This document shows, piece after piece, positions 3,024 to 58,109 of a DNA stretch of 64,000 nucleotides. A program made the translations under genes and the position numbers. The stretch is from a virus. Below the pieces are notes generated by a model. It was given only the letters and a program-made list of their open reading frames with translations, was not told the origin of the DNA and searched no databases. The stretch is taken from IMG/VR virus record IMGVR_UViG_3300045988_105796; one strand, written 5' to 3'. Each line of letters opens with the position of its first letter. Within the stretch, counting starts at the first letter, position 1.

Positions 3024-3027
3024 AACT

Positions 3028-4289: not shown

Positions 4290-4319
4290 ATTTGTATTGT
4301 ATATTATATTTATATACCT

Positions 4320-6029: not shown

Positions 6030-7015
6030 TGTTCTTCGGATTTATTTAAGATGTTAATTAAAAGATTTTCTCGATTCTTATCTTTTATACCAGTAGTCCT
6101 CATATAACGTTTAGCTAGACGCTTTTTAGATAACTGCTTAGTAATTTTATGTTCTACTATTTTTTCTACTCTAGATTGTTTCGGAATAACTGTATAGTAG
6201 TTACCATCATCCTTTATTTCTTCTTCTGATTCTACATCAATGAACTTAGGGAAGTTATCTAAAGGTATAAATTTTAATGATAAGTCTTCATATAACTCCC
6301 AGTAACCCATTTCACAATTTTTATCAGTTCTACGCTGTTGTAAGGGAGCTCCTATCATATATACCTTTTTAGCCAATCTTTGGTGTTTATGTATATGACC
6401 ACATAATACTAGATCGAACTTATTTAGAGTATTTATATTAATATTCTCTACAGAATCTATACGTCTACCATCTGTATCAGTAGCACCTGGATAATCAGTA
6501 TGTAATAATAGGATATTTTTACTATTCTTATCCAACTTCAATTTAGAGATATATTCACATAAACCTACGTTATGATCTATGTAGGGTATACCATGTACCG
6601 TAATATCTAAACCTATATCTATAGATTCTTTATTTAATATCTTAAATCCCCATTCTGAAGGACCAAATCCTTCAAAACAGTCTAGAATAGATTTAGTTAA
6701 ATTATCTATCTTATTTACCGAAGGCAGTTCATGATTACCACTTATGGCATAACATCTAAATCGAGGGTATTTAGAATAACATTCTCTTTGCCATTGAATA
6801 AATCTTATAAGTAGTGAAGTATCTAATACGTTAGGTTTATGAAACATATCTCCACAAAATAAAGCAGGTACTCCTAACTCACTACATTTTTCAGCTATTA
6901 ATGAGAGAACCTTGAAACCGTTCTCAGTTCTCTCATTATTTTCGTTAAACTTTGCCCATTGATTTAGATGTAAATCTGAAAAGGCTAAAGCTATTACTTT
7001 CTTAGATTTTGTCAT
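6026..7015 (-). CDS. sbcD: SbcD/Mre11-like nuclease (T4 gp47 analogue)
   Basis: Calcineurin-like phosphoesterase motifs FSDLHL, GDMFHK, SGNHE and GHIHKHQ. 4-nt overlap with the SbcC-like gene. Confidence 0.85.
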   Translation of the reverse strand: MTKSKKVIALAFSDLHLNQWAKFNENNERTENGFKVLSLIAEKCSELGVPALFCGDMFHKPNVLDTSLLIRFIQWQRECYSKYPRFRCYAISGNHELPSVNKIDNLTKSILDCFEGFGPSEWGFKILNKESIDIGLDITVHGIPYIDHNVGLCEYISKLKLDKNSKNILLLHTDYPGATDTDGRRIDSVENININTLNKFDLVLCGHIHKHQRLAKKVYMIGAPLQQRRTDKNCEMGYWELYEDLSLKFIPLDNFPKFIDVESEEEIKDDGNYYTVIPKQSRVEKIVEHKITKQLSKKRLAKRYMRTTGIKDKNRENLLINILNKSEEQ

Positions 7016-7694
7016 ATATGAAATTTATTATATATTCTGATCTAATATCTAATTTCGGTTCTTTAACTACCATGATTCTAGTTTCTCCATGTATAGTATC
7101 AAGTTTCCATATCTCTACTCCTTCTTTAGATTGAGTACCAGGTCTATACCAATGATTGTTGACTAAATGTACTTCTCTAATAAATTGAGCCTTCCAATAT
7201 TTGATCACTGCTTTCATTATAGAAGATATTTCACACTGGAAAAATCCATTTGTGATCCTCTTTTCATTATCTTCTACTATCCAGTTACCTATAAGCTCTG
7301 GAGTAAAATCTAACAGTATGAGATGTGAACAATATTGATTGGTAAACATTTTACATAAATCCATAAAATGTTTTACTTCACATTCTGGGATTTTATCTGC
7401 TTGCTTATACATAAAATAAGAAGCTACATCCAAGAAGCTACGATCACTGATAAAAGATTCTTCATTTTGGAAGAGCTTCTTCCTCAAGTTTAATACCTGA
7501 AAATCCTCCATGTACAAAGTCTTAGGATCTTTAGATAACATCTCCTGATGAGTTTGTTCTTTTGTCTTTGGTAATAAATCAGATACAGAACCTGATATAA
7601 AGTTTATATCTGCTACATTACCTATCTTTTCAGCTAAAGTAGTCTTACCTATACCTGAAGGACCTGCAAACATTATTTTATTCTTTCTTTCCAT
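7002..7694 (-). CDS. P-loop deoxynucleoside/deoxynucleotide kinase-like protein
   Basis: Walker A FAGPSGIGKTTLAEKI. dNK-like SDRSFLDVASYF motif (the DRS..sd..vF pattern). Confidence 0.55.
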   Translation of the reverse strand: MERKNKIMFAGPSGIGKTTLAEKIGNVADINFISGSVSDLLPKTKEQTHQEMLSKDPKTLYMEDFQVLNLRKKLFQNEESFISDRSFLDVASYFMYKQADKIPECEVKHFMDLCKMFTNQYCSHLILLDFTPELIGNWIVEDNEKRITNGFFQCEISSIMKAVIKYWKAQFIREVHLVNNHWYRPGTQSKEGVEIWKLDTIHGETRIMVVKEPKLDIRSEYIINFIYDKI

Positions 7695-8631
7695 AAGTTC
7701 TTTCTATTTGTTTATTGAAGTTATCTATAAATAGTTTTGAATAGAAGGATCCTAAACTATATTCGTTAACTACTCTTTCTAAAGCTTTTACCTTGATTTT
7801 ACCCTCCTTAGGAATTCTCATAGGTAAAGTCTTTATAGGATGATGATTTATAAACCATCTCAAGTCTATCATCTTTTTATTCCTATCATATACTTCTTTC
7901 ATCTTCTTATGACCTTCATCTCCTTTAAGATAAGTGTCAGATTCTAAGTAGTTTTCAATACAAGTATAATCATCTAAGAATTTTCTTGCCTTCTTTTCTC
8001 CAATACCTGGATAACCTGGGATATCATCAGATTTATCACCTACTAAGCAAAGCCAATCAACACATTCACTTGCAGAATAACCATTAATTACTTTGCAATT
8101 AGAATCATATATTAGTTGATCTTTACGCACATTAAAAATCATCGTAGTTTGCTTTACAAGCAATTGATTAAAATCTTTATCTGCAGTAATTAATATTCTT
8201 CTAGATTTCTTAGGAGCCCACTTGATAGCTAGATGAGCAAGGAAGTCATCTCCTTCATAATTATATTCCTTCTTCTTATCGTATACATATTTAATACATA
8301 AGATCCTTAATAACTTCTGTATTACCTTCTTTTGACTATGTAAAGATTCATAATCCATAGATATGTTCTTTCTATGAGCCTTATAAGTAGGTATGATCTC
8401 AGTACGATATTTTGAATGACCGTTATCAAATACTATTACTACATCATCCGGTCTAAACCTATACAAGTATGTCTGTAAAGACTTAAAGAATCCGAAGATT
8501 GCTCCACTTGGTTTACCATCTACTGATTTGAAATTCATGAACTTATGGTAAGATTGATGGAGAAGTCCCTCTCCATCAACCAATACTATAGTTTTACGAT
8601 TAAGATTGCGCGTCTTCTTCTTCATAGTCAT
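7678..8631 (-). CDS. 5'-3' exonuclease / flap endonuclease (T4 RNase H-like)
   Basis: PIN-like N-terminus IVLVDGEGLLHQSYH, then ITADKDFNQL, and H3TH GDKSDDIPGYPGIGEKKARKFL. Confidence 0.85.
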   Translation of the reverse strand: MTMKKKTRNLNRKTIVLVDGEGLLHQSYHKFMNFKSVDGKPSGAIFGFFKSLQTYLYRFRPDDVVIVFDNGHSKYRTEIIPTYKAHRKNISMDYESLHSQKKVIQKLLRILCIKYVYDKKKEYNYEGDDFLAHLAIKWAPKKSRRILITADKDFNQLLVKQTTMIFNVRKDQLIYDSNCKVINGYSASECVDWLCLVGDKSDDIPGYPGIGEKKARKFLDDYTCIENYLESDTYLKGDEGHKKMKEVYDRNKKMIDLRWFINHHPIKTLPMRIPKEGKIKVKALERVVNEYSLGSFYSKLFIDNFNKQIERTYGKKE

Positions 8632-9004
8632 GTATCATTTCTTCTAACAACTCTATACTGTAGTAATAATTCCTTTTAATAATAGAAGGAACCAAATACC
8701 ATAATTGAGTACAGTTAAACTGATTAATATACTCTTCTAATACCTTACGATTTTCTTCAAGATCTAATTCGGCATAAAGATCTTCAGAAGCTAACCCTCT
8801 ATCAATTGACAAGTGACATACTGAGATAGCTTTTTTCAAATCCTCTAAACCATTCTTATTATTATATCTTGAAGAGTATTTTAGTATCTCTCCTTGGAAC
8901 CAGTCCATTTTGAAGATTACCATTAAATCTACTGGCTCTATCTTCAATCTAGAGTAATGGGTACCAGCTACCTGTCTTTTTTTATTCGTCATCATCTTCT
9001 TCAT
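8600..9004 (-). CDS. DUF3310-like phage protein
   Basis: GTHYSRLKIEPVDLMVIFKMDWFQGEILKYSSRY...GLEDLKKAISVCHL resembles the DUF3310 pattern. By-eye match only. Confidence 0.35.
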   Translation of the reverse strand: MKKMMTNKKRQVAGTHYSRLKIEPVDLMVIFKMDWFQGEILKYSSRYNNKNGLEDLKKAISVCHLSIDRGLASEDLYAELDLEENRKVLEEYINQFNCTQLWYLVPSIIKRNYYYSIELLEEMIHDYEEEDAQS

Positions 9005-10109
9005 AATCTCCTGATATATTTTCTACTGGATATAAGTTTTTATCTATACTTTCTAGTAACTTTTTAGTAGTTCCTAAAGTGTTTATACCTTCTTTTCTTA
9101 TTAACTTTCTACGAAGATCATCATTGTCTTCTAATAAAGCCTTAAACTTCTCTGCTCCTCTACATAAAGTTTTACCCTTATAAGTAAATGTACCTGAGTG
9201 AGATTTCTCTACTATACCATCTTCTACTAGAAGTTCATCTAAGAAATGTAAACGATCAAAACCTACTTCATCTACATATTTAGGATTATTATATAAAGGA
9301 GAAGCCTTTAATGTAGGTCCAGGAGGAGCAACTTTATTTTTAATGGTTCTTATTGAAGTTACTCTACCTATCTTCCTTTCTTTACCTTTTACTTTTTTAG
9401 TAATCTGTTTACCTCCATATAAACCTATTCTCAATGAAGCATAGAATCTTAAAGCTTGTCCTCCTGGAGTAGTATCAGGATTTTCAAACATACCTGCTTT
9501 TAGATTCTTTCTTAACTGATTGATGTAAATCTGGGTTATTCCTAAAGAATATAACATTTCATTACGTATACGGAAGAATTTATATATTGCCTTAGCTCTG
9601 TTACCCATATCAGCAGAAGCATTATCCATTTCTGAATCTATATTAGCGTCTGTATCTAAAGCTGATACTGAATCTAATATTAATAGGATTGGCTCATTGT
9701 GAGTTAACTGAGATCTCCAATATAAAGATTGAGCAGCTATCCAGTCAGAAATTTTTTCTATAGAAGTATTTCTATATACTACGATTTTAGATAAATCTAA
9801 GCCGTTAGATTCTGCCCATGAATTAGTAAATACTTGTTCAGCGTCTACCCATAAAACTACTCCACCAAGATATTGAGCACAATATGCAAAATCATAAGCC
9901 ATTAGAGTTTTACCTGAGGATTCTTCTCCAAATAGTTCCATAATTTTACCGTAAGGAATTCCTCCTCCAGTAATCTTATTAAAAGCTAAAAATCTTGAAG
10001 GTAACCAAGGTGATTTAGACTCATCTACCTCTGCTGGTACATATTGACCTGCGAATTTCTTTTGTAATTCTCTTAAAGAAGGTATCTTTATTTTCTTTCT
10101 ACCTGCCAT
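8982..10109 (-). CDS. recA: RecA-like recombinase
   Basis: Walker A ELFGEESSGKTLMAY (RecA GPESSGKTT), Walker B ILLILDSVSALD, and the L2-like region NQLRKNLKAGMFENPDTTPGGQALRFYASLR. Confidence 0.85.
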   Translation of the reverse strand: MAGRKKIKIPSLRELQKKFAGQYVPAEVDESKSPWLPSRFLAFNKITGGGIPYGKIMELFGEESSGKTLMAYDFAYCAQYLGGVVLWVDAEQVFTNSWAESNGLDLSKIVVYRNTSIEKISDWIAAQSLYWRSQLTHNEPILLILDSVSALDTDANIDSEMDNASADMGNRAKAIYKFFRIRNEMLYSLGITQIYINQLRKNLKAGMFENPDTTPGGQALRFYASLRIGLYGGKQITKKVKGKERKIGRVTSIRTIKNKVAPPGPTLKASPLYNNPKYVDEVGFDRLHFLDELLVEDGIVEKSHSGTFTYKGKTLCRGAEKFKALLEDNDDLRRKLIRKEGINTLGTTKKLLESIDKNLYPVENISGDYEEDDDE

Positions 10110-10121
10110 AGTGTATTATCT

Positions 10122-10170
10122 ATAAACAAAATAGGGAAACAGCTACCGATTAAAATAACTATCTCCCTAT
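10122..10170 (-). terminator. Intrinsic terminator between the SSB and RecA genes
   Basis: The minus strand reads ATAGGGAGATAG-loop-CTGTTTCCCTAT (12-bp stem including two G-U pairs) followed by TTTGTTTAT. Confidence 0.5.
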
Positions 10171-10195
10171 CAATTAAACATTATAAACTAACTCA

Positions 10196-10966
10196 TTAAA
10201 TATCGCCATGGCGATTCTTCTTCTTTTTCTTATCCTTTGATGACTTCTTTTTCTTCTTTGGAGTATCATCATCGTCGTCATCGTCATCTGGAGTATTATT
10301 TAAGAACTTATTAAGTTCTTCTTCAATCTCATCGTAAGATTTAACCTGAGATTTTACCATACCCATTAAATCTACTGGCTCAAGAAGTTTCTTATCTACC
10401 TTAGTAGGTTTACAATTACGAACTGAGTATGATGTATCAAATCTACCTGAACCTGAACGATCTATCTTAATATCATAACCATTCTTAGGATCTGTCATAT
10501 CTCCAGCCTCATCCTCATCAAGGTAAAGTTCAATAATATCCTGGTATACAGAAGAAGGAATCATAACCAATCTTGGTTTACTGTCGTAATCTAATTCCTT
10601 ACCCTTTTCATCCTTATATACCAAGCCAGCAATTACATACCTACGTGAAGGAACAAATTTCTTTGCTAACTTCTTATCATCTTCATCCTTTGAATCTTTT
10701 AACTCCTTGTATTTATCCATAACTGGACAAGGTTCATCAAATGAAGCTGGAGAAATGATTGAATGATCTCCGAGGTAGAATCGGATAACTTCTATTCCAA
10801 GTTCCTCATTAGGACCTGCACTTACGATTCTTACTCGTGTAGTACCATTACCTGGGAATACAAAACCATTTCCTGATCCCTTTTCAGCTAGTTTCTTTTT
10901 TCTAGCTAACATCTTCTCTCTAGTAGTTTGACCAGAAGAAGACAACTTCTTTTTTTCTTTTTTCAT
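10196..10966 (-). CDS. T4 gp32-like single-stranded DNA-binding protein
   Basis: GTTRVRIVSAG, CPVMDKY, YVIAGLVY and GYDIKIDRSGSGRFDTSYSV occur in the gp32 order. Acidic tail DDDDDDDD followed by a Lys run. Confidence 0.55.
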   Translation of the reverse strand: MKKEKKKLSSSGQTTREKMLARKKKLAEKGSGNGFVFPGNGTTRVRIVSAGPNEELGIEVIRFYLGDHSIISPASFDEPCPVMDKYKELKDSKDEDDKKLAKKFVPSRRYVIAGLVYKDEKGKELDYDSKPRLVMIPSSVYQDIIELYLDEDEAGDMTDPKNGYDIKIDRSGSGRFDTSYSVRNCKPTKVDKKLLEPVDLMGMVKSQVKSYDEIEEELNKFLNNTPDDDDDDDDTPKKKKKSSKDKKKKKNRHGDI

Positions 10967-10967
10967 C

Positions 10968-11357
10968 TTACTTATTTGGATTGTTTTCTGTAAATAATAC
11001 TTCGTTTAATGATAAGATAGTAAACTTATATTCTCCAATTTCTCCTACAAGGTTTGGATCAAAGCTAACCTCTTTACCAGCGTATTTACCATAAGTAACT
11101 ACCTTACCTACTTTGATAAGATCATAGTAAGTCTTATACTCTTCAGTTATTTCTCCAATAGAGATAATAACTCCTTTATTAGGTATGGTATCTTCTCCAC
11201 GAGAAGCTGGTAAGATTATACCACCACTAACTGTTTCTTGATTATTAGGGCTTAGGATAAGTACCCTATTTTCTGTTAATCTTCCTCCAATACTATGTAT
11301 CTTATCGGAAAGTTTGAAAGCTTCTGTTTCACTTGTAAATTTTAATGGAATGTACAT
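10968..11357 (-). CDS. groES: GroES-like co-chaperonin (Cpn10 fold)
   Basis: TVSGGIILPASRGEDTIPNKGVIISIGE...VGKVVTYGKYAGKEV...EYKFTILSLNEVL is colinear with GroES (mobile loop GGI.LP). About 35 aa N-terminal extension. Confidence 0.7.
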   Translation of the reverse strand: MYIPLKFTSETEAFKLSDKIHSIGGRLTENRVLILSPNNQETVSGGIILPASRGEDTIPNKGVIISIGEITEEYKTYYDLIKVGKVVTYGKYAGKEVSFDPNLVGEIGEYKFTILSLNEVLFTENNPNK

Positions 11358-11362
11358 GTTGT

Positions 11363-11374
11363 TTTTAATGTTTA
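11363..11374 (-). promoter_or_regulatory. Recurrent leader motif TAAACATTAAAA (copy upstream of the GroES-like gene)
   Basis: The minus strand reads GTTAAACATTAAAAACAAC-ATG. The same 12-mer occurs upstream of 47314 and 49746, with a variant upstream of 43291. Confidence 0.3.
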
Positions 11375-11414
11375 ACGTTGTTATTTTTAACCTTGTATAT
11401 TCAAATAGTAAAGG

Positions 11415-11831
11415 CTATTGCTTTCTTAGATTTGCAGATAAAGTCCTGATCACATTCTCTCTACTTTCATAAGCTTTACATAGAGAAATGAATTGAGCAG
11501 CTTTTTCTGCCATTTTTAAGTAAGCATTAAACCTAGATATATACTTATGATTAGTATTTGCCTTGTTAGATACATAATCATTATTCCACTGAGGATTAGC
11601 ATTCTTATAAAAGTTCCATGCTTCACTATAGGCTACATCCTTTTCTTTTGCTAGTTCTTCTCTTCTACGTATATATTTATCACGAATATTGCATAGAATA
11701 AAATAACTAGAAGGTATATCTCTTAATTGAGAATCTAACCTATTTTTATCTATAGATAATTCCTTTTGAATATCTATGATAATTTCTTTACCTTGATATT
11801 TAACCTTTACAGGTTTTATATTGATATCCAT
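11415..11831 (-). CDS. Hypothetical protein
   Basis: ORF track; tightly packed in the replication module. No family recognised. Confidence 0.5.
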   Translation of the reverse strand: MDINIKPVKVKYQGKEIIIDIQKELSIDKNRLDSQLRDIPSSYFILCNIRDKYIRRREELAKEKDVAYSEAWNFYKNANPQWNNDYVSNKANTNHKYISRFNAYLKMAEKAAQFISLCKAYESRENVIRTLSANLRKQ

Positions 11832-11832
11832 A

Positions 11833-12372
11833 CTACTTTATCTTAAGTAACTGACTTTTCTTACCATCTTCGTGTACCAACATAATATTACCTTGTTGAT
11901 CTACGTGTAAGAATTTACTCCTTTTAGCAAATTCTAATATTTCCCTAAAAGCCATGTTTTCTTTTACATCCTTGAAAGGGAAGTTCATCAGTCCTTTATA
12001 CTTATCAAGTAAGTGATATAGATTATACAACCTATACAAGGATACTTCATCTAAACCTGCCTTATCTACTATCTGCATAAATAAAGCAAAGTATACATGT
12101 AAGGTATCCTCAAATTTAGAAGAATCTACCTCATTCATAGTTAGTACAGATTTTTTATTTAATTCTTCTACTAACCAGATAAGTTTATTAAGAGTTCTCC
12201 TTATCTCCTTTACTATCTGTTTATTAGATTGAACTAAATCTAAACTAGCCCAATCCATAGCTTTCTCTGCTTGCTCAAAACCTTGAGCTGCTGCTCCAGC
12301 TAAGATATAAGCTAAGTTTAATTTTCTATTAGCCCATGTCCTAGCATTGATTATAGCTTTATCTTCTGCCAT
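11833..12372 (-). CDS. Hypothetical protein
   Basis: ORF track. No family recognised. Confidence 0.5.
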   Translation of the reverse strand: MAEDKAIINARTWANRKLNLAYILAGAAAQGFEQAEKAMDWASLDLVQSNKQIVKEIRRTLNKLIWLVEELNKKSVLTMNEVDSSKFEDTLHVYFALFMQIVDKAGLDEVSLYRLYNLYHLLDKYKGLMNFPFKDVKENMAFREILEFAKRSKFLHVDQQGNIMLVHEDGKKSQLLKIK

Positions 12373-12389
12373 TTGTTATAATATTTTAA

Positions 12390-12596
12390 TTATAAAGATA
12401 TAGTTTCTGATCTTTTTCCCTTTATACATTTCATACTATTCTCATGAGGTAGTAAGTTTTTACAACTGGGACAAGGTATATACCTATGTAAAAAATCCCT
12501 CATAAAGTAAGTATCTTCAAGCTGATACTCAAAATTCTTATCGCAGTAAGGACAAATCATAATATATTTATCCAAGCTTCTTGTAATATGCTTCAT
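12390..12596 (-). CDS. Small zinc-ribbon protein
   Basis: Two CxxC pairs (CPYC ... CPSC). Its start overlaps the 3' end of the polymerase gene by 29 nt. Confidence 0.45.
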   Translation of the reverse strand: MKHITRSLDKYIMICPYCDKNFEYQLEDTYFMRDFLHRYIPCPSCKNLLPHENSMKCIKGKRSETISL

Positions 12597-14838
12597 ATTC
12601 TTTGAATTGTTTCTTAAATACTTTAGGGAAATCCTTGATAGATATATTTTTATATTTCATATATTGCTTATGAAAATCCTCCTCATTGTATTCTCCATTC
12701 AATAGCTTATTATAATCATATAAAGGTACAAAAGGTAACTCTTCTGCCATTGTTCTACCTATTTCAAAATCCATTGACATGTCTACGTCATTGATTTGAA
12801 AACCAAAATATTCTTTAGTTTTAGGGTTTCTAAATATATTCCACATGTGATATACTGTGTATATATTTATATCATTTGGCTTAGTGTTAAAATAGTTAGC
12901 GTCATGTACCAAGCATACTGAATCCATCTGAGGGAATTTCCTCTGTCTCATTGACCAATATAATAATATAGATCCAAATAAACACATGTCAGAAGCAGCT
13001 GATTGACAAGGAGCGTTTACAGATAATCTTATAGCATAAGCTACTTCAGATCTATCTTCTGAAAATACTTGGGGCAATCTTCTTTTTCTTCCAAATAAAC
13101 TAGATATATAACCTTGTTTTTTAAGAACCTTCTCCTGATGTTTCATGAATTTCTTTATCTTAGGATGTTCCTCAAAAAATTCATTTAATTGTTGTTGAGC
13201 TTCATCGGGTGTTACTATTAAACCTGCCTTAGGATCAGATAACTTTTCTGATAAAAGTTTAGCTTGTATACCATAGATAATACCGAAAGCAATTTGCTTA
13301 GCCTGTTTACGTCTAGTGCTCCATATTTTATGTTCTGGATTATTCTCATCATCTTTTGCTGCAAGAGCTACTTCATAGGGTACTCCGTATTTCTTTGCTG
13401 CAATAGCTAAGTGAGGATCTTGATTTTCTGCAAAAGCTTTAAGATAAGTTTCATCTCCAGATAAGTGAGCCATGATTCTTAACTCTGCCTGTGAAAAGTC
13501 CATTGCAAAGTATAAAGTACCAGGGTTAGCTACCAACTGTTTCTTAATATTAGGGTCTACAGAAGTTTTAGGTATTTGCTGCATATTAGGTTCTGAAGAT
13601 GAAAGTCTACCACTAGTAGTTCCAATGATATTGAATTTACCATGTAGCTTAGAATCATCCTGTACCTTTTCATTCCAACCTTCTATGTAGGTCTTATACA
13701 TTTTCTCCAATCCTCTCAACTCTAACAAAGTATCAAGGAAGATTGCTTTTGGAGACTTAGGATCTTTTACAGTTAATCTTAATTCTACTAAAGCATCCTC
13801 TGCTGTAGATCTACCTCCATTATCTGTATACTGAGTACATTCGAAATTAAATCCATCATATATCAAAGCTGGTAAGTCTCTATTACTGTTTAGATTTAGA
13901 GGATTGATTAAAGCTTTCTCAGTTTTAGTAGTAAATACTCCTGCTAATATGTTTTCTATTTTCTTTTCTCTACTAGCAATTTTTCTTTCACTACCAGGTA
14001 TTTCTTCTAATTGAGATATTTCATCTCTTAGTTTTTCTAAATAGGTATCTATTCTTTTCTGAATATATTTTTTAGTAAACTTCTTAACCCTTGGTAAATT
14101 ATATATTACCTCATAAGCATTATTTATCTTAGGTTTATAAGTTTCTAATAATTCCTGATTGAAAGCTCTATCCAGATATAAACCATTCTTCTCTACAGTT
14201 TGTAATACCCTACTAGCAGGCATTATCATATTACGGAAAAGATTATACATATCCTTTTCTATAATCATTCTTTCGAAGAATATAGATAATCTGAAAGTAT
14301 AATCGGTATCTTGACAACCATATTGACATAGAGGTTCTAATGGTTTTTGATCCCAAGGTATCTTATCAAAACCCTTTTCACTTTCATAGTTAGCAGCCCA
14401 TGGTAAATATCTTTTTACCATATCTTTCAAACCATTTGGACGTTCTTCATTAAGAACATATTTAGCAAGCATACCATCTATCAAAGTACCTCTTAGATAT
14501 ATACCATATTTTTCAAATATCTGTAAATCGAATTTAGCATTCCAAGCAATTTTAACGATATTCTTATTTTCAATTACTTCATGACCAAATCTTTTTAGAG
14601 CCTTTAACCAATTCCATGTTCTATCAGTGTATTTCTTAGTTTCAAAATGATGTAAAGGTATTGAACATCCAAAACCTGGCATACAAGTTACTGATAATAT
14701 GGTAGGCTTGAAATCCTTCTTATATATACCTTCTGCATTAGTCTCAAAGTCAATACAAGCATATCTAGTAGACTTACATAATTCTATAAGCCTATCTAAG
14801 TCTTTATATGATTTGATTATTTTATATTTAGTTCTCAT
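12568..14838 (-). CDS. polA: Family-A DNA polymerase with 3'-5' exonuclease domain
   Basis: Exo I CIDFETN. Motif A YFAMDFSQAELRIMAH. Motif B RRKQAKQIAFGIIYG. Motif C VCLVHDA. Confidence 0.9.
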   Translation of the reverse strand: MRTKYKIIKSYKDLDRLIELCKSTRYACIDFETNAEGIYKKDFKPTILSVTCMPGFGCSIPLHHFETKKYTDRTWNWLKALKRFGHEVIENKNIVKIAWNAKFDLQIFEKYGIYLRGTLIDGMLAKYVLNEERPNGLKDMVKRYLPWAANYESEKGFDKIPWDQKPLEPLCQYGCQDTDYTFRLSIFFERMIIEKDMYNLFRNMIMPASRVLQTVEKNGLYLDRAFNQELLETYKPKINNAYEVIYNLPRVKKFTKKYIQKRIDTYLEKLRDEISQLEEIPGSERKIASREKKIENILAGVFTTKTEKALINPLNLNSNRDLPALIYDGFNFECTQYTDNGGRSTAEDALVELRLTVKDPKSPKAIFLDTLLELRGLEKMYKTYIEGWNEKVQDDSKLHGKFNIIGTTSGRLSSSEPNMQQIPKTSVDPNIKKQLVANPGTLYFAMDFSQAELRIMAHLSGDETYLKAFAENQDPHLAIAAKKYGVPYEVALAAKDDENNPEHKIWSTRRKQAKQIAFGIIYGIQAKLLSEKLSDPKAGLIVTPDEAQQQLNEFFEEHPKIKKFMKHQEKVLKKQGYISSLFGRKRRLPQVFSEDRSEVAYAIRLSVNAPCQSAASDMCLFGSILLYWSMRQRKFPQMDSVCLVHDANYFNTKPNDINIYTVYHMWNIFRNPKTKEYFGFQINDVDMSMDFEIGRTMAEELPFVPLYDYNKLLNGEYNEEDFHKQYMKYKNISIKDFPKVFKKQFKEYEAYYKKLG

Positions 14839-14933: not shown

Positions 14934-15683
14934 TTATACCTTATCCTTCATAAGATCATCTATAGATGATTTTAATAAAGGCCAGTCTTTCTTGTAACAA
15001 TGAAGAGAATCTATAGTATGAATGAGCATACCTGGTTTAACTCCTACCTTCTCTGCTACATATTCCATCATACACCATGCAAGATATACATCATCTCCAA
15101 AATGTTGAACAAAATCTGAACTTCTCTGATGATAAGTAAGATTTAATCTTCCTTCTCTAACAAAGAAACCATAATATACTGAACAAGGGATTCTCTTATT
15201 ACCTTCATAATAATTACAATCATTTCCAGTAAATATAGGGAGAACTGCTTTACGAGTATCTGGATCTGTTTTTAGCAATTCAATAACTGCTTCAAGAGCT
15301 GTAAGATTTTCTCCTCTGTATTTTACAAATCTATTGATACGATCTGCATAAGTATAATCGAATTTACCTTGTTTATCCAAGAATTGTTCCCACATATCTT
15401 TTCTTTCAAGATAAGCAGTTCCAGGATTAACTGGATGACCACTGATTCTCTCTTTGAATTCCATCTCTGCCCATTTCTTAGCATGAGTGAAAACAAATAG
15501 GTATTCTACATCAGGTAGATTTGTAATACAGTACTGTTTACAAAATTCTTCCTTAGTAATAAAATCTTCATTACCCTCGATCACTTTGTTCTGATAGGTT
15601 TTAGGTTTAACCTCTGTACCCATTTCCCAAAGATCTCTGCTCATCTCTGACATGAGCTCTCTTGCATTACTATAAATACGCAT
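14934..15683 (-). CDS. Thymidylate-synthase (ThyA) family enzyme with Asp at the Asn177-equivalent position: dCMP hydroxymethylase/methylase-like
   Basis: LLKTDPDTRKAV...IPCSVYYGFFVREGRLNLTYHQRSSDFVQHFGDDV aligns without gaps to E. coli ThyA LKNDPDSRRII...[35 protein letters not shown]. Cys146, Arg166, Ser167 and Asp169 are kept; Asn177 is replaced by Asp. Confidence 0.7.
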   Translation of the reverse strand: MRIYSNARELMSEMSRDLWEMGTEVKPKTYQNKVIEGNEDFITKEEFCKQYCITNLPDVEYLFVFTHAKKWAEMEFKERISGHPVNPGTAYLERKDMWEQFLDKQGKFDYTYADRINRFVKYRGENLTALEAVIELLKTDPDTRKAVLPIFTGNDCNYYEGNKRIPCSVYYGFFVREGRLNLTYHQRSSDFVQHFGDDVYLAWCMMEYVAEKVGVKPGMLIHTIDSLHCYKKDWPLLKSSIDDLMKDKV

Positions 15684-15720: not shown

Positions 15721-16653
15721 TTAGCCTTTTCTATGTAGCTTAGCTAAATACTTCTTCTTATATTTCTTTCTCTGAGAATAAGTTATACAATTCTCTGGAT
15801 ATTCAATATCGTCATTTTCTATAACCAAATCTTTAGCTAGTAAAGGCTTATACTCAAATAAATCTGGACGCATTACCTTGAAACTTCTTAGGAATACCTT
15901 ATAAGTAGAGAATTCCTTCTCAGTACCTTTCATGAACTTATCATATACTTCTTTTATTCGGGTATACCATTCAGTGGTTTTATCCATCTTCTTAGTAACC
16001 TTCTTAAAAGATTTATGACCTCCACAGTACATAAGTAATGTTTCTATATTACCATACATCTGAGTAGCAAATATGTTGATCTGTACTCTCTGATCTTTAC
16101 CATAAACATATTCTGCCATTCTTTGTATTAGCAAGAGATCAAACATCAATCTCTTAGTAATCTCAGAAGCTCTCAGTACCATAGTAATAACTGGTATATC
16201 TTCTGAAAATCTCTTACTAAAGGTAGCAGCTAATAAGCATTGCTTACCATTATTATGTTTATTGTGGAAGAGGAATGATACATTGTAGTTTTGATTATAT
16301 CCTACAGTCTTCATCTTTATCTGAGACTTCAATAGATCTAACTGATTAAAGTCTAAGTAATTGTTTAAGAGTACGGTCCATTTTGATTGTGTGTAATTAA
16401 AATGGCGACCAAAATCGAAACTAGGATCAACCCAAGCATTTCTAATTTTAATGAATATGTTATATACTACTGCTACACCTGCATTAGCCACAGCTCCCTT
16501 GTTAAAGAGCTGTGGATCTAATGTTATAAAACCTTCGTTTAACTTCTCCCATGCTTCAGTAGAGGTAGCAAACTCTAAATCATGTACATGTTCAGAAGCA
16601 TCAAAGGTCATGTTCTCAAATTTTTTATTCCATCCTCCCATATTAATAACCAC
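15721..16653 (-). CDS. Hypothetical protein, possibly a second divergent ThyA-fold paralogue
   Basis: GKQCLLAATFSKRFSEDIPVITMVLRASEITKRLMFDLLLIQRMAEYV is colinear with the ThyA PCH...[13 protein letters not shown] core if a 2-aa insertion is allowed. It again gives Phe-Asp at positions 176-177. By-eye match only. Confidence 0.35.
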   Translation of the reverse strand: MVINMGGWNKKFENMTFDASEHVHDLEFATSTEAWEKLNEGFITLDPQLFNKGAVANAGVAVVYNIFIKIRNAWVDPSFDFGRHFNYTQSKWTVLLNNYLDFNQLDLLKSQIKMKTVGYNQNYNVSFLFHNKHNNGKQCLLAATFSKRFSEDIPVITMVLRASEITKRLMFDLLLIQRMAEYVYGKDQRVQINIFATQMYGNIETLLMYCGGHKSFKKVTKKMDKTTEWYTRIKEVYDKFMKGTEKEFSTYKVFLRSFKVMRPDLFEYKPLLAKDLVIENDDIEYPENCITYSQRKKYKKKYLAKLHRKG

Positions 16654-17536
16654 TATTTTGACGGAAATGATTTACTCTGTTTTTCTTAAAACATAGAGTA
16701 TACAAAGTCTTAGGAATAAATCCCATTGTATAGAGATAACCCAGGTACTTAATTAATCCCAATGCTAATTGTTCACTATATCTAGTGATATCTGTTAATT
16801 CCTGTGACTGTTTCCAAGGTTTATTCTTTAAGAAGTTTCTAGATATATTAATATGGTATGCTACTCCCCACAACATATGATCTTCGCAACGATGAAAATC
16901 TTTATTGCTAAATCTAAAAGCAGGTATATATGAATTTACATGATCTACATCTAAGCCCATATCTTCAATATTAGCTTCGCTTAGAAGATTATATCGGTAG
17001 TCCATATCTTCTAATTCTTCTTCTTTACCTTCAAGATCAAACATATAACTACCTAATAACATTAGATCAAGCATATTCTCAACTTTATCTCTGTTAATTC
17101 TAGCTACTAAATCCTTTAATTTAGCATTAGCATAGTTATAAATATCTTTAATCTCAAGATTAGCATACATCAACAAAGCCATATAAAAAGCCATAGCATC
17201 TGCCTGCTCTTCATTGGAATTCTGAAGATTATTAGCTACCATTTGCCATTCAGAATCACTAAAGGTTTGGTTATTAAAACCATGATCTTGATACATATCA
17301 ATAACTGCAGAAGTAGATTCATAACCCTCTGCTGTTTCCTCAATTACTCTTGCAGAAAAATCCTTTAGTACCTGTTGACCTTTGAAAGTATTAATATCAA
17401 TAGGAGGTAGTGGTAGATCTTTTTCGATCTTACCACAATATCCTTGCAATAGTTCAGCCTCTAGATTATATATAGCTTCTAAATAAGCTTCCTTTTCTAC
17501 TACTGTAGGTATTTCTCTAATATTTCTAATATCCAT
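16643..17536 (-). CDS. All-alpha NTP pyrophosphohydrolase (MazG / dimeric dUTPase-dCTPase-like)
   Basis: LKDFSARVIEETAEGYES and NSNEEQADAMAFYMALLMYANLE fit the paired E..E / E..D metal-binding helices of MazG-like enzymes. Confidence 0.5.
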   Translation of the reverse strand: MDIRNIREIPTVVEKEAYLEAIYNLEAELLQGYCGKIEKDLPLPPIDINTFKGQQVLKDFSARVIEETAEGYESTSAVIDMYQDHGFNNQTFSDSEWQMVANNLQNSNEEQADAMAFYMALLMYANLEIKDIYNYANAKLKDLVARINRDKVENMLDLMLLGSYMFDLEGKEEELEDMDYRYNLLSEANIEDMGLDVDHVNSYIPAFRFSNKDFHRCEDHMLWGVAYHINISRNFLKNKPWKQSQELTDITRYSEQLALGLIKYLGYLYTMGFIPKTLYTLCFKKNRVNHFRQNSGY

Positions 17537-18389: not shown

Positions 18390-18760
18390 TTCATTTCTTT
18401 ATAAATTTTCCTGATAGTTTTAGTAGGTACTTCATATTTAGCAGAAGTCTTCTCTACTATTTTCTTCCTATCAAAACCTTTTCTCTTTAATCCCCTAATA
18501 TATTTCTTAATTGCCTTAACATCTTCGAGGATTTCAAGATCCTTATAATTATTCTCTTCTTCTAATTGTTTACGAGTTTTACCTAATGTCTGAGACATCT
18601 TCAAACAACATAACTCAGAATCTCCACACATCCTACACTCTTTAGTAGTAAGATTATAACCTTTACCAAAGCAAGGATCTTTATCAGTACCGATCTTTGA
18701 TAAATCAAATGGTTCCAGGGGATCATGTTTAAGTAAATCTACTCCTTTACTCTTTTTCAT
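18386..18760 (-). CDS. Hypothetical Cys-cluster protein with basic C-terminus
   Basis: DPCFGKGYNLTTKECRMCGDSELCC, then a Lys/Arg-rich helical tail. No family recognised. Confidence 0.5.
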   Translation of the reverse strand: MKKSKGVDLLKHDPLEPFDLSKIGTDKDPCFGKGYNLTTKECRMCGDSELCCLKMSQTLGKTRKQLEEENNYKDLEILEDVKAIKKYIRGLKRKGFDRKKIVEKTSAKYEVPTKTIRKIYKEMK

Positions 18761-19337
18761 TTTTTATACTTTTAATTCCTTTATTGCAAATAGTTCTTGT
18801 TAAATACTTCTTTCTATCCTCTTGATAGCCTTCTGTATTTGTATATCCACAACATTTCATCTCAGGACAAAACCCTCTATATAAACAGGAAGGTACACAA
18901 TAACGAGCAAGTATAGGCTCTATTTTAGATAGCTCATCTATAACCATATTCCAAGCTAATCTAGTTACTTTATCAGCTCGATTACATAATCTTACCTTAG
19001 ATATGTTAATAAGTTCTTGAGCATTCATATAGAGTATCATATTAACAGGATCTGTTTGTTTTCGTGTAGATCTATCAACTCCAGTTATATCTCCTCTTGA
19101 GGTTGATACAAAAGGCTGAGCATGTACATGTCTTACTAAGTGACCCATGTTACAATAAGGGATATCCTTTATAGTTATCTCAAAATTTAATAACCTCAAA
19201 GGAGAGTGTTCAGCTACTATCATATCTTCCTTAAAATTCTTGGAAGGTTCTTTCATTAAAGGGGCAAGGTTCTGAGTGAACCTTGCTGCATTCAGTACAT
19301 CATTCCAAGATGTTTTACGTATTACGTTTACTTGCAT
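18747..19337 (-). CDS. ThyX-like (flavin-dependent thymidylate synthase family) protein, short and divergent
   Basis: AEHSPLRLLNFEITIKDIPYCNMGHLVRHVHAQPFVSTSRGD matches the ThyX pattern HgSplE...f.i.g.sr....ql.RHR..S....S.RY, but with RHVH in place of RHR. Later NAQELINISKVRLCNRADKVTRLAW matches the n.R.l.hf...R....AQ.EIR pattern. Confidence 0.5.
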   Translation of the reverse strand: MQVNVIRKTSWNDVLNAARFTQNLAPLMKEPSKNFKEDMIVAEHSPLRLLNFEITIKDIPYCNMGHLVRHVHAQPFVSTSRGDITGVDRSTRKQTDPVNMILYMNAQELINISKVRLCNRADKVTRLAWNMVIDELSKIEPILARYCVPSCLYRGFCPEMKCCGYTNTEGYQEDRKKYLTRTICNKGIKSIKNEKE

Positions 19338-20146: not shown

Positions 20147-21628
20147 CTATGCCTTAGCCTTGAAAGTATATTTGGTATATAACCTTGCTAGATTAATCAC
20201 TTTCAATTTCTCTTGCCTATAGTATCTAGCTCTCTTTTTAGAATGTCTTCCTAAATATCTACCGGGATATTGAATATCATCTAGATAAACTCTATTCTTA
20301 CCCTCATAGGTTCTTACCAATCGTCCAAGGAATTGTATAGATTTCTCCTGTGAGTTCATCCCTGCTGCATTAATCATATATCTCAGTTTAGGGAAGTTCT
20401 TACCTCTGGCAATGATTGTAGTAGATATTAATATATCTATCCTACCTTCCCTAAAATTTTCCATTATACTTTTTCTTATATTAGCAGGAGTATTTACATG
20501 CACATAAGCAACTTTATATCGTAGATCTAGTGCATTAGATAAATACTTATATAAGTTTTCACAGTGTTTAATATATTTGCAAACTATGAGTGCTGGTAAT
20601 CTACCATAAGTTATATTATATTTTAACCTATCCAATACTACCTTATAAGAATCTTTGTTCTCAATTACATTGGCATCATATTCTTCTTGATATACTTTTA
20701 TCTCTTTATAATTCTTAGGATATAAATCTATACAGGGTACCAGTTTAACTATAGTGTTAGTTGAATGACCAACCTTTATAGAATCCTTTATAGTAAACTT
20801 AAACATCTCTTTACCAAAGAAAGCCTCAAGATTCATATTCTTAAGTTTATCTTTAGCAAGGTTACTCATATAGATGGTACCTGATAAGCCTATTCTTACT
20901 CGAGTATTATATAGGTGAGTTAAAACGGTTTGGTACATTTTACTACCGGCTAAGTCAGCCTCGTCTACTAATACCATATCTACTTTAGCTAACTCATTCT
21001 GGTACTTCTTAATATTACGTGATATAGATTGTACCATTCCTATGCTAAAGTTAGACCAGTTCTCTACCTTACTACCTTGAATAAAGGTTATATTTTCATC
21101 TGGTAAATATTGCTTAAACTCTTTCTGAGATTGTCTTAGCCAATCAGCATCTTGAGTTATCAATAGTGTTTTAAGTTCTCTACCATAACTGTAATATAAA
21201 GAAGACATTAGTAAACTCTTACCAAAGTTAACTGCAGCATTTACTACTCCGATATGAAAAGGTATATCTGCTATCTTATATTTTAAGATATTTTCTAGAG
21301 CCTGTAATTGTTCTTTACGTAAACTATAGTTACCAATGTTTTTAACTATCTTAGCTTTAGGTATAGGTCTTCTAGTATCTATGATTTTAATCTTCAATCC
21401 ATATTCTTTCAACATTTGATAAACCCTTGGTAACATACCTATCTTAAATACTCCATATTTATTTAAGAAGTGTACTTTACCATCCCAGCCTCTAACTTTC
21501 CTCATTAGATAAAAAGCTTGAGGATGTTTGATACTAAGTTCATCATATAACTTTACTGCATACTTTTGAGGTATATCTAATTCACACTCATTGCAGTTTT
21601 TAATAATGATCCTATTCATCTTCATCAT
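20147..21628 (-). CDS. SF2 DEAD/DEAH-box helicase (UvsW / type III Res-like)
   Basis: Walker A VNFGKSLLMS. Motif II MVLVDEADLA. Motif III LSGT. Motif VI QFLGRLVR. Confidence 0.8.
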   Translation of the reverse strand: MMKMNRIIIKNCNECELDIPQKYAVKLYDELSIKHPQAFYLMRKVRGWDGKVHFLNKYGVFKIGMLPRVYQMLKEYGLKIKIIDTRRPIPKAKIVKNIGNYSLRKEQLQALENILKYKIADIPFHIGVVNAAVNFGKSLLMSSLYYSYGRELKTLLITQDADWLRQSQKEFKQYLPDENITFIQGSKVENWSNFSIGMVQSISRNIKKYQNELAKVDMVLVDEADLAGSKMYQTVLTHLYNTRVRIGLSGTIYMSNLAKDKLKNMNLEAFFGKEMFKFTIKDSIKVGHSTNTIVKLVPCIDLYPKNYKEIKVYQEEYDANVIENKDSYKVVLDRLKYNITYGRLPALIVCKYIKHCENLYKYLSNALDLRYKVAYVHVNTPANIRKSIMENFREGRIDILISTTIIARGKNFPKLRYMINAAGMNSQEKSIQFLGRLVRTYEGKNRVYLDDIQYPGRYLGRHSKKRARYYRQEKLKVINLARLYTKYTFKAKA

Positions 21629-22451
21629 TTATTTTATTCCACAAACTACCTTCTATAGCATTGATATAATCTTCCTTAGAAGATTCAGAATGTTTGTACA
21701 TAAACTTAGTGTAATAACCATAAGCCTTATCATTTACTAAGTTCTGAGGTTCTGGCATACCATTACACCAAGCTAATCCTTCAAATTGAGCATCTATCCA
21801 ATTCCTATAATCTATATCTTCTTCGTTACACTTATTAGCTACATCCTTGAAGTAAGCATATAGACTTGGTTGATTGGTATAATCAACTCTAATACCAGTT
21901 CTGTTTACAATGGTTTTACAATAATAATCATGTATCTCTTTAGTAAATTCAGGATCTGAATCTTCTAATAACTCCTGTTTAGATTGATAAGTCTTAGAAA
22001 TTTCTTCAGACATGTTTAATAAGCTGTTAAGATAAGATTTATGATTCCTATTTTTTAATAGGTTTAATCCTGTCTTAATATACTCAATGTAACCTGCTCG
22101 GGTTTCTAATTCAAAATCCTTACAGAAGGTATTACAAATATCGGCTAACTTTTTACAACTTGCCCACAATCTTGGTTGAGATTCTTCTATCTTTCTAACA
22201 CCTTTGAACTTCATACTTACTTGAACAGAGTAGAAGATGTTAGCTGCAAGGTTAGCATCACCCAAGCTTGCTAGAGCAATATTATTAGCTTTCTTTCTAT
22301 TCTTACTGCTTTTAATCAACATAATTCTAGTATTTACAGCACTTTGCTTAGCATTAACGAAAAAATCCTCCACTGGGAAGGATTTTACACCAAGTTCTTT
22401 TAATAATTCCTTGAACTTAGTTTTTGTTATGTGTATACTGGGATCTCTCAT
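21612..22451 (-). CDS. Hypothetical protein
   Basis: ORF track; 17-nt overlap with the helicase gene. No family recognised. Confidence 0.5.
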   Translation of the reverse strand: MRDPSIHITKTKFKELLKELGVKSFPVEDFFVNAKQSAVNTRIMLIKSSKNRKKANNIALASLGDANLAANIFYSVQVSMKFKGVRKIEESQPRLWASCKKLADICNTFCKDFELETRAGYIEYIKTGLNLLKNRNHKSYLNSLLNMSEEISKTYQSKQELLEDSDPEFTKEIHDYYCKTIVNRTGIRVDYTNQPSLYAYFKDVANKCNEEDIDYRNWIDAQFEGLAWCNGMPEPQNLVNDKAYGYYTKFMYKHSESSKEDYINAIEGSLWNKINDEDE

Positions 22452-57017: not shown

Positions 57018-57108
57018 GAATAAGGATTAAATTTATAGGTACATTTTTAACCTATAACCTTATTCATCCTTCGGATGAAAGTAACTACCTCGTAAACTCG
57101 GTAGTTAC
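57018..57108 (-). terminator. Three consecutive hairpins directly after (and overlapping) the methyltransferase stop codon
   Basis: Hairpin 1: GAATAAGG..TTATAGGT-loop-ACCTATAACCTTATTC (57018-57065). Hairpin 2: CATCC-TTC-GGATG (57065-57077). Hairpin 3: GTAACTACC-10 nt-GGTAGTTAC (57081-57108). Confidence 0.45.
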
Positions 57109-58109
57109 GATAGTAGACATTTCTTAAACCATTTACCTACTTGATATACAGATCCTTTAGCTATGGTATATCTTGCTTTATTCAACCAGTATAGATAATT
57201 ATCTTTATCCATGTAGATCTTATATTCATCTGGGAAACCCATGATATTTTTGAAATCCTTTATACCAAGAGGATAACCATCAGGTCTAAACTGTCTATCT
57301 GCAGGCCTTAAAGTCAATGGAGGTTTATCATACTCTAATCTATATACTCCAGGTAGAGTAGACATCTTAGCTGTCTTAATAGGCCATTTCTTTTCATCCT
57401 TGAAATCAGTTCTCCAAAGTTTCTTAATCTGTTTAACGGTAAGATTTTTCTTTTCAGGTAAAGCCCTATAATCATACATCGCTAATATTTTATTTAACGG
57501 CGGCATATAATTATCATTATTTTCCTTAAAATAGGGACATTCTAGTAATTTTCTAGAGCTTACAGGAGTGTCTACTCTAAATATATTGTCGAACTTATTT
57601 AAGTAACTCTTAGACTTAATTTTAATTCCTACAATAATTAACCTTTTCCTTGATACTTGTGAATTACCAAAATCTACTACAGAACGTTGATGATAAATTA
57701 ATTTATAACCGGGTACCTGTATTTCAAAAAATTCCTTTGGCAATAGAGTTACTAATCTTGGTAAATTCTCTAATAAGAAAACCTTAGGTCGGTATTTATT
57801 AATGGCCTGAATAACTAAATTCAAGGATTTATTCTCTTCTGGCTTACCTAATTGTTTAACTTTAGATAACCTCATTATAGAAGAAGCTCCACAATCTGGA
57901 CTTGATATAATTACATCAGCCTTAATATCTGGTAGTTCATTTCTCAAAAAAGGTATATCTCCAAAGTTCAACTTCCACTGTTCTTCATTCTTGGTATGAA
58001 ATACGGCTCTAGGTTCTATATTAGCAACTAAATTCTCTTTAAACGGAAACAGCAGGGCTCCTTGCCCTGCTGATACTCCTAAAACCCTTAAATGCTTCAT
58101 CGTAGACAA
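57105..58109 (-). CDS. DNA (cytosine-5)-methyltransferase-like protein with an atypical catalytic motif
   Basis: Motif I-like VLGVSAGQGALLFPF. Motif IV-like ISSPDCGASS (P-D-C instead of P-C). Motif VI LLENLPRLV. Motif VIII FGNSQVSRKRLIIVG. Confidence 0.6.
   Translation of the reverse strand: MSTMKHLRVLGVSAGQGALLFPFKENLVANIEPRAVFHTKNEEQWKLNFGDIPFLRNELPDIKADVIISSPDCGASSIMRLSKVKQLGKPEENKSLNLVIQAINKYRPKVFLLENLPRLVTLLPKEFFEIQVPGYKLIYHQRSVVDFGNSQVSRKRLIIVGIKIKSKSYLNKFDNIFRVDTPVSSRKLLECPYFKENNDNYMPPLNKILAMYDYRALPEKKNLTVKQIKKLWRTDFKDEKKWPIKTAKMSTLPGVYRLEYDKPPLTLRPADRQFRPDGYPLGIKDFKNIMGFPDEYKIYMDKDNYLYWLNKARYTIAKGSVYQVGKWFKKCLLS

Follow-up and report, generated by a model that had tools for sequence, protein, structure and literature searches.

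The window, a 64,000-nucleotide stretch of gut phage DNA from the IMG/VR virus record IMGVR_UViG_3300045988_105796, encodes a homolog of thymidylate synthase (TS) that belongs to a large, sharply defined and uncharacterised clade of the TS superfamily. Its gene is obligately paired with that of a second, cryptic protein, which is assigned to the same superfamily by its modelled fold and by Cys, Arg and Asp at the positions 146, 166 and 177 of E. coli ThyA. The best reading of the locus, drawn by analogy, is a module for pre-replicative cytosine modification that resembles that of T4 but has two TS-fold enzymes, and in which the TS homolog probably makes a modified cytosine nucleotide for the phage DNA. 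It is considered rather likely that the TS homolog is a folate-type, C5-modifying enzyme specific for deoxycytidylate (dCMP) and not a synthase of thymidylate (dTMP), and that it acts in the pathway proposed below. The two genes and the lengths of their products in amino acids (AA) are:

14934..15683, minus strand: TS-fold enzyme of a distinct clade, 249 AA (Pfam, alignments, AlphaFold2 (AF2) model)
15721..16641, minus strand: cryptic TS-fold protein, 306 AA with the ATG at 16641 as start (AF2 and Foldseek, hhalign)

The thymidylate synthase homolog and its clade

A reading made from the sequence alone, hereafter the sequence-only reading, had aligned this protein by eye and without gaps to E. 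coli ThyA, starting from the catalytic Cys. The string quoted there, IPCSVYYGFFVREGRLNLTYHQRSSDFVQHFGDD, is present in the 249-AA translation of the open reading frame (ORF). The Pfam family PF00303 (Thymidylat_synt) matches residues 95-241 at 1e-20, and the PHROG 'thymidylate synthase' family matches at 5e-30. From the catalytic Cys through the 177 position, HMMER aligns the protein without gaps to a solved ThyA structure (3uwl). A MAFFT multiple alignment, with E. coli ThyA, T4 gp42 (gene 42), RB69 gp48, the Xp12 TS homolog and SPO1 gp29 as references taken from annotated records, agrees with this and bears out the alignment made by eye.

In the MAFFT alignment, Cys167 corresponds to ThyA Cys146, Arg187 and Ser188 to Arg166 and Ser167, and Asp190 to Asp169, the four residues that had been reported as kept. 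The reported Asp at the specificity position was also confirmed. Asp198 (codon 15090-15092) stands in the column of ThyA Asn177, together with T4 gp42 Asp179 and the Asp of RB69 gp48 and Xp12, while the dUMP (deoxyuridylate) hydroxymethylase of SPO1 (gp29) and ThyA have Asn there. Further key residues of the TS homolog are Arg16, Glu78, Arg79, Trp98, Tyr110, Tyr112, Arg144 and the His228/Tyr230 pair. Other ThyA residues are replaced: Arg164 takes the place of Leu143, three residues before the catalytic Cys (Cys-3), Ser168 that of His147, His194 that of Gly173 and Phe101 that of Trp83. The alignment stops early at the C-terminus, with 19 residues after the HxY motif compared to 55 in E. coli ThyA and 61 in Xp12.

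The AF2 model of the TS homolog has a predicted local distance difference test score (pLDDT) of 94.9 and a predicted template modelling score (pTM) of 0.92. Foldseek matches it to ThyA, to MilA and to the dCMP hydroxylase of phage HY126 with E-values of ~1e-13 to 1e-14. The best sequence matches in the PDB are 9iqu and 9iqc, the HY126 hydroxylase (AfhB), at 2e-13 with the family profile. The best TS equivalog models of NCBIfam reach 64 and 56 bits, with cut-offs of 174.6 and 327, respectively.

Conservation was assessed in three sets of sequences, namely a family alignment of 46 sequences, 80 related IMG/VR loci, and the best 150 representatives of 50%-identity clusters in a library of 1.84 billion proteins, 140 of which cover position 177. 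Asp198 is invariant in the family alignment, all 80 loci have R-C-S-R-S-D-D at the positions 143/146/147/166/167/169/177, and Asp occupies position 177 in 140/140 covering representatives. Because of this invariance across all three sets, the Asp is no chance substitution. The Arg at Cys-3 is likewise invariant in the family alignment, in 80/80 loci and in every covering representative. Asp at the 169 position is found in 139 of the 140, with Asn in the remaining one. In the clade as a whole, position 147 is Ser or Thr, a His at the Gly173 position is near-invariant, and 8-19 residues follow the HxY motif. The position of T4 Ser94, which is Tyr110 in the TS homolog, is His in the actinophage members. 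The clade comprises 174 clusters (50% identity) below 1e-30 that align over their full length, the divergent N-terminal third included. It can be recognised by the motifs R16, E/D78, R79, W98, Y112, R144, R164-x-P-C-S/T, R-S-x-D-x-x-x-H-x-x-x-D and H-x-Y/F.

In five long clade proteins of 576-648 AA (P0278, P0332, P0335, P0352 and P0387), the match to the TS-homolog profile is split into two stretches that lie apart, the first of which stops just past the catalytic Pro-Cys in P0278. The pattern suggests that intein-like insertions interrupt the active-site region of these long members.

The effect of Asn or Asp at position 177 on the preference for dUMP or dCMP, on which the sequence-only reading relied, is an established, published principle (PMC8670742). 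According to the MetaGPA study, TS homologs with Asp177 are mostly located on contigs of fully cytosine-modified DNA, and the positions 177 and 147 are the top discriminators between fully modified-cytosine and unmodified contigs. In addition, the co-occurrence of TS, PRA-PH and deaminase genes is often specific to fully cytosine-modified contigs (PMC8670742). The sequence-only reading had predicted that the enzyme acts on dCMP instead of making dTMP. This part, the dCMP reading, is well supported: the invariant Asp, the NCBIfam scores below the cut-offs, the missing C-terminal tail, the T4-like neighbours and the MetaGPA association all point to dCMP. The other part, a product assignment as hydroxymethylase or methylase, is not established, as Cys-3 is an invariant Arg and an Xp12-like tail is missing. 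That reading mentions neither a flavin-dependent synthesis of 5-hydroxy-dCMP, an outcome that the kept Asp169 disfavours, nor the second TS-fold gene next to it.

For the product, published rules are available. Leu143 versus Asp or Glu at Cys-3 tracks methyl versus hydroxymethyl products, and D169N marks the flavin-dependent 5-hydroxy-dCMP synthases, a newly discovered class (PMC13326640, 2026). Gly173 is listed among the twelve ThyA residues within 6 A of C5 (PMC13326640). The ternary complex of the T4 dCMP hydroxymethylase (dCH) identified Asp145 at Cys-3 as essential, since D145N yields no product. T4 dCH is active without the ThyA C-terminal tail, which in ThyA closes the folate site for hydride transfer (PMC6400193). 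The TS homolog keeps Asp190 where the 5-hydroxy-dCMP synthases carry D169N. From the Xp12-type set of Asp177, C-terminal tail and a dihydrofolate reductase (DHFR) partner, it has the Asp only, with no tail and no DHFR homolog in the window. Judged by its residues, the active site matches the signature of no known product class among these three, and its product is therefore not assignable by current rules. The absence of the C-terminal tail argues against reductive methylation, and the retention of Asp169 argues against flavin-dependent 5-hydroxylation. Therefore, we infer a non-reductive C5 transfer on dCMP, with hydration to 5-hydroxymethyl-dCMP as the default.

The cryptic partner and the linkage of the pair

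The gene of the cryptic partner adjoins that of the TS homolog directly upstream. Its mechanically called ORF reaches a GTG at 16653 (15721..16653), but translation probably begins with the ATG at 16641, which lies 1 nt past the stop codon of the MazG-like gene before it. Searches against Pfam, NCBIfam, PHROGs and the PDB sequences gave the protein no function, with no match in Pfam, NCBIfam or the PDB. The family is highly conserved in the same phages as the TS homolog.

The AF2 model of the partner has a pLDDT of 78.6 and a pTM of 0.77. Foldseek returned 13 PDB matches at E <= 0.001, all of them members of the TS superfamily. MilA was the top match (6e-06), followed by the HY126 dCMP hydroxylase AfhB (2.6e-05) and T4 dCH (~5e-04). 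All 50 PDB matches listed belong to this superfamily, the weaker ones being ThyA-type thymidylate synthases. In a viral structure library, the closest entries are named 'uncharacterized protein' and are followed by thymidylate synthases and dCMP hydroxymethylases.

The register of the partner core against the TS core was established by eye and with hhalign. Cys139 corresponds to Cys146, Arg161 to Arg166, Glu164 to Asp169 and Asp172 to the 177 position, or to Cys167, Arg187, Asp190 and Asp198 of the TS homolog, respectively. A first hhalign comparison of the partner with the TS family gave the correct register at a probability of only 6.9%. With more divergent members added, the probability was 87% and the E-value 3.7e-06, again in the catalytic register. 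Tyr99, Cys139, Arg161 and Asp172 are invariant across 13 partner members, down to 16-20% identity, and Glu164 is kept in all but the actinophage members. The Arg126/Arg127 pair, which binds phosphate across the dimer, is absent from the partner, where the corresponding segment reads 'YNQNYN'. A single annotation recognises the relationship to TS and hydroxymethylases: the ortholog in MW202455 (ctfzr933, an uncultured myovirus; 2668-3438) is labelled 'pyrimidine hmase synthase'. The other records of partner orthologs read 'hypothetical'.

The linkage of the pair was counted in those related IMG/VR loci that have room on the contig for the respective neighbour. The TS homolog comes after the cryptic gene in all loci counted (78/78), and the same holds for the MazG-like gene before it (76/76) and for a dUTPase-family gene upstream (75/75). 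In a database of cultured phages, the cryptic protein occurs in exactly 13 records, the same ones that hold the closest TS homologs. The Clostridium perfringens phage CPD4 has the order kinase, MazG-like gene, cryptic gene and TS homolog, followed by three short ORFs and a Family A DNA polymerase (PolA). Phage DP SC_6_H4_2017 (L088, MT121964) carries two tandem, diverged copies of the cryptic gene (5989-6978 and 6971-7756) upstream of the TS homolog. These copies are 35% and 39% identical to the partner in the window, and both keep the Cys/Arg/Glu/Asp set.

The pairing also extends to more distant phages. Profile searches placed the ORF directly upstream of the TS homolog in the partner family for Nodigi (gp55, 1.5e-53), ctfzr933 (2e-29), STP12 (1.4e-10), Muddy (gp47, 1.5e-05) and Emalyn (gp47, 0.007), so that the pairs are gp47/gp46 in both Muddy and Emalyn. 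The hosts include Clostridium, Pseudomonas (STP12), Gordonia and Mycobacterium (Muddy). The TS homologs of these five more distant phages share the Arg/Asp/His/Asp signature with that of the window. The pair is obligate, and the module is spread over phages of Firmicutes, Proteobacteria and Actinobacteria.

The module of the related phages includes a P-loop deoxynucleoside monophosphate (dNMP) kinase and a gp56-like pyrophosphatase of the MazG/PRA-PH type. The C-termini of Muddy gp48 (6e-08) and Emalyn gp49 (3e-08) resemble the T4 gp56 deoxycytidine triphosphatase (dCTPase). A dCMP deaminase or ThyX is also part of the module in STP12, Muddy, Emalyn, Nodigi and ctfzr933. In Muddy, STP12, Emalyn and Nodigi, the gene that comes next after the pair encodes the deaminase, and ctfzr933 has a ThyX. 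Wherever a related phage was examined, PolA followed the TS homolog. By analogy, the module follows the logic of T4 (gp56, gp42, cd, gp1), with an extra TS-fold enzyme.

Neighbouring genes, proposed pathway and alternative explanations

The window has a low GC content (about 31%), and nearly all of its genes are located on the minus strand. The following genes are relevant to the proposed pathway:

16643..17536, minus strand: all-alpha MazG / dimeric-dUTPase-like nucleoside triphosphate pyrophosphohydrolase, 297 AA
17540..18121, minus strand: trimeric dUTPase-family protein, 193 AA, with a weak dCTP-deaminase-like match (PF22769, 0.0055)
18747..19337, minus strand: divergent ThyX-like ORF, 196 AA (PF02511, 28.1 bits against a cut-off of 24.8)
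7002..7694, minus strand: P-loop nucleotide-kinase-like protein, 230 AA (PHROG 'thymidylate kinase', 4e-08)
12568..14838, minus strand: PolA with 3'-5' exonuclease, the next gene after the TS homolog
57105..58109, minus strand: C5 DNA cytosine methyltransferase-like protein (PF00145, 8e-14; TIGR00675, 1e-11)

The C-terminus of the MazG-like protein resembles Muddy gp48, Emalyn gp49 and CPD4_73. Its similarity to Muddy gp48 reaches 9e-10 and that to T4 gp56 itself is weak, and a sequence search of the PDB gave no match. It is a candidate dCTPase that would supply dCMP. The dUTPase-family protein has an N-terminal extension and a Gly-rich C-terminal tail, and is a candidate dUTPase or dCTP deaminase/dUTPase that would supply dUMP. 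As a bifunctional dCTP deaminase/dUTPase, it may replace the dCMP deaminase of the actinophage modules. A tblastn search of the window for a further ThyA homolog, a DHFR or a dCMP deaminase gave no match.

The ThyX-like ORF was considered as a possible separate dTMP synthase. Its match spans only the C-terminal part of the Pfam model, and the protein reads 'RHVH...STS' where ThyX has RHR...S. No match was found in the PDB, and BLAST detected no similarity to the bona fide ThyX of ctfzr933. Since the Pfam score is marginal, the motif reads RHV, there is no such BLAST similarity and the ORF occurs in only 11/68 related loci, it was downgraded as proof of an independent dTMP source.

From the fold, the residue identities, the conservation and the gene linkage, we infer the substrate, product, cofactor and fate in DNA as follows. 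The gp56-like MazG-type pyrophosphatase would turn dCTP into dCMP. Cys167 of the TS homolog would then attack C6 of dCMP, with Asp198 reading the N3/N4 face of the cytosine, and C5 would receive a one-carbon unit from methylene-tetrahydrofolate, bound through Asp190 and Trp98. The resulting exocyclic methylene intermediate would be captured by water or another nucleophile and not reduced, because no tail is present to close the folate site for hydride transfer. The trio Arg164/His194/Tyr110 may stand in for T4 Asp145/Ser94 as water-handling residues, and the product of this step would be 5-hydroxymethyl-dCMP or a derivative. The cryptic partner, which retains the Cys, Arg and Asp of this catalytic apparatus, might perform a second step on a cytosine nucleotide, again driven by C6 attack, or be an obligatory partner subunit. 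Finally, the P-loop kinase and host enzymes would form the triphosphate, and PolA is the presumed user of the modified deoxynucleoside triphosphate, which it would put into DNA.

A more far-reaching version, which we put forward tentatively, is that the pair is a two-enzyme or heterodimeric system making a C5-modified deoxycytidylate other than the 5-methyl, 5-hydroxymethyl or 5-hydroxy forms. Such a product could arise if the methylene intermediate is trapped by a nucleophile other than water, or through a second Cys-C6-driven step on 5-hydroxymethyl-dCMP.

Several observations weigh against cytosine modification along these lines. The T4-type hydroxymethylase signature has Asp or Glu at Cys-3, where the TS homolog has Arg164. 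From the Ser-x-Tyr pair (T4 Ser94/Tyr96), Tyr112 is kept and the Ser position is occupied by Tyr110. For T4 Glu58/Glu60, the conserved pair for folate activation, MAFFT puts Ala68 in the column, a placement of low confidence because the N-terminal 95 residues are unalignable to ThyA by sequence. The invariant Glu75, Glu78 and Arg79 lie one helical turn from this column. The assignment of 7002..7694 as candidate dNMP kinase for the modified nucleotide is weak, and the protein resembles the module kinases of other phages in the P-loop alone. A scan of ORFs in the replication, structural and packaging regions turned up neither a DNA glycosyltransferase nor a carbamoyltransferase. A literature search of incomplete coverage found no biochemical or DNA-composition data for any clade member.

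The C5 methyltransferase-like gene is hard to square with a complete C5 replacement of cytosine, and the record title of the relative MT121964 also names a DNA cytosine methyltransferase. Full C5 substitution would leave no substrate for such an enzyme, and therefore cytosine may be replaced only in part, or the module may act for the nucleotide pool. The motifs of this protein are unusual ('PDCG' for motif IV, 'ENL' and 'QVSRKR'), and its mechanically called start is a TTG, with a likely ATG three codons in.

Among the alternatives, a dCMP methyltransferase as in phage Xp12 is unlikely. Xp12 DNA carries 5-methylcytosine made at the dCMP level, and the TS homolog would in the same way reductively methylate dCMP to 5-methyl-dCMP, with 5-methylcytosine installed before replication. 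A phage with a C5 DNA methyltransferase is evidently compatible with 5-methylcytosine. The Xp12 TS homolog, a presumed dCMP methyltransferase, shares Asp at the specificity position and Asp169/Arg166/Ser167 with the TS homolog of the window. It also has no hydrophobic residue at Cys-3 (Asn), and the Cys-3 rule is thus not absolute. Furthermore, Asp177 alone makes ThyA a dCMP methylase, according to Liu & Santi 1992 and Hardy & Nalivaika 1992 as cited in PMC8670742. However, the Xp12 protein is as long as ThyA, with 61 residues after HxY in a ThyA-like tail, and its gene has those of DHFR and a dCMP deaminase at its sides, whereas the clade members are truncated to 8-19 residues after this motif and the window is without DHFR. 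As it is the tail that closes the folate site of ThyA for hydride transfer (PMC6400193), its loss counts against a reductive step, as do the exchanges of Trp83 for Phe101 and of Leu143 for Arg.

It is also improbable that the module serves the nucleotide pool without giving rise to a modified DNA base. In variants of this explanation, C5-modified dCMP would be deaminated toward dTMP or 5-hydroxymethyl-dUMP, dCTP would be removed, or a nucleotide countering host defences would be made. The position of the dCMP deaminase directly after the pair in four of the related phages fits such a role, and the C5 DNA methyltransferase of the window implies unmodified C5 positions. Moreover, a Cys-C6 adduct accelerates C4 deamination, as in side reactions of C5-methyltransferases, and this chemistry offers the cryptic partner a possible deaminase-like role. 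Nevertheless, T4 too has a dCMP deaminase beside its hydroxymethylase, and a replacement pathway would accommodate the deaminase just as well. That PolA and a dNMP kinase are so tightly linked to the module suggests a DNA precursor, and MetaGPA ties both Asp177 TS homologs and sets of TS, PRA-PH and deaminase genes to fully cytosine-modified contigs (PMC8670742).

A flavin-dependent 5-hydroxy-dCMP synthase, as described for RB69 gp48 and HY126 AfhB (9iqu, 9iqc; PMC13326640), is given only a slight chance, even though AfhB is the closest solved structure by sequence. These enzymes and the TS homolog are short and tail-less, with Asp at 177, Ser or Thr after the catalytic Cys and, presumably, dCMP as a common substrate. 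Those enzymes use flavin and O2 and carry D169N with Glu at Cys-3, whereas the clade has Asp169, in all but one of the covering representatives, and Arg. In addition, no sugar-nucleotide or arabinosyl-transferase genes were seen.

An ordinary but divergent thymidylate synthase converting dUMP to dTMP is hardly tenable. The label 'thymidylate synthase' from Pfam, PHROG and the GenBank annotations of relatives, the common fold, the Cys-Arg-Ser-Asp core and the probable use of methylene-tetrahydrofolate all link the protein to E. coli ThyA, but it differs from ThyA by N177D in every covering member, by L143R, H147S, G173H and W83F, by the missing tail and by a divergent N-terminal third, its NCBIfam equivalog scores are 3- to 15-fold under the cut-offs, and ThyX is co-resident in ctfzr933 and weakly in the window.

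Known systems, significance and further genes of the window

The dCMP-modifying function favoured here can be compared with two characterised hydroxymethylases. The TS homolog shares with T4 gp42 the TS fold, the catalytic Cys, the Arg-Ser phosphate site, the Asp169 equivalent, Asp at the Asn177 position and the absence of a tail. Both are located near a gp56-like all-alpha pyrophosphatase, a P-loop kinase, weakly assigned in the window, and a phage DNA polymerase. However, the identity is about 20%, and the N-terminal 95 residues of the window protein are unalignable by sequence. At Cys-3, an invariant Arg contrasts with the essential Asp145, Tyr110 with Ser94, and His with Gly at position 173. 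T4 is without a second TS-fold protein, while its glucosyltransferase has no counterpart among the scanned ORFs of the window.

The CMP 5-hydroxymethylase MilA of Streptomyces (5jnh, 5b6d) gave the highest Foldseek TM-score to the model of the TS homolog (0.76) and is the top structural match of the cryptic partner as well. It is cytosine-specific, with Asp177 and no hydride-transfer step. MilA differs from the TS homolog in its Asp at Cys-3, in its ribonucleotide substrate and in its role in bacterial secondary metabolism.

Asp177 as a flag for cytosine-modifying TS homologs has already been published, including those of metagenomic phages, and the bare observation is not new. New is a distinct clade of the TS superfamily whose members always come with a cryptic, previously unrecognised paralog of the TS fold. 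Literature searches on 9iqu/9iqc, C. perfringens phages and TS-homolog hypermodification, and on Muddy, actinophage cytosine modification and MazG with hydroxymethylase, found nothing on the clade or the pair, although their coverage was incomplete. A paper on an 'epigenetically modified phage' was discarded as evidence for Muddy, as it concerns phage BPs. No nucleotide similarity of the window to known phages was found.

The module is present in the cultured, genetically tractable phages Muddy, Emalyn, CPD4 and STP12, which makes the identity of the base and the question of the second enzyme directly testable. Muddy is used therapeutically, and DNA modification in this phage, if true, would bear on its host range, restriction evasion and sequencing-based quality control. 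A product other than the 5-methyl, 5-hydroxymethyl and 5-hydroxy forms would, if true, be a new branch of pyrimidine-modification chemistry. Such a branch would span gut, Clostridium, Pseudomonas and actinobacterial phages, including Muddy.

Several further features of the window and its relatives were noted. The PolA of DP SC_6_H4_2017 has 1092 AA, and its match to the PolA of the window falls into two blocks, suggesting that an element such as an intein has been inserted. A replication/recombination block (1-12400, including 10968-11357 on the minus strand) encodes a GroES/Cpn10-like co-chaperonin, a gp32-like single-stranded DNA-binding protein, a UvsX/RecA-like recombinase, a 5'-3' exonuclease, an SbcCD-like nuclease pair and a RusA-like resolvase. 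Conserved ORFs without a family match are located at 2091-3023, 11415-12372, 21612-22451 and 26758-28200. At ~59500-61600, a short run of plus-strand ORFs starts, with gene orientation and GC skew changing sign near 59.5-60 kb. This switch is probably a transcription-module boundary or a region near the genome ends.

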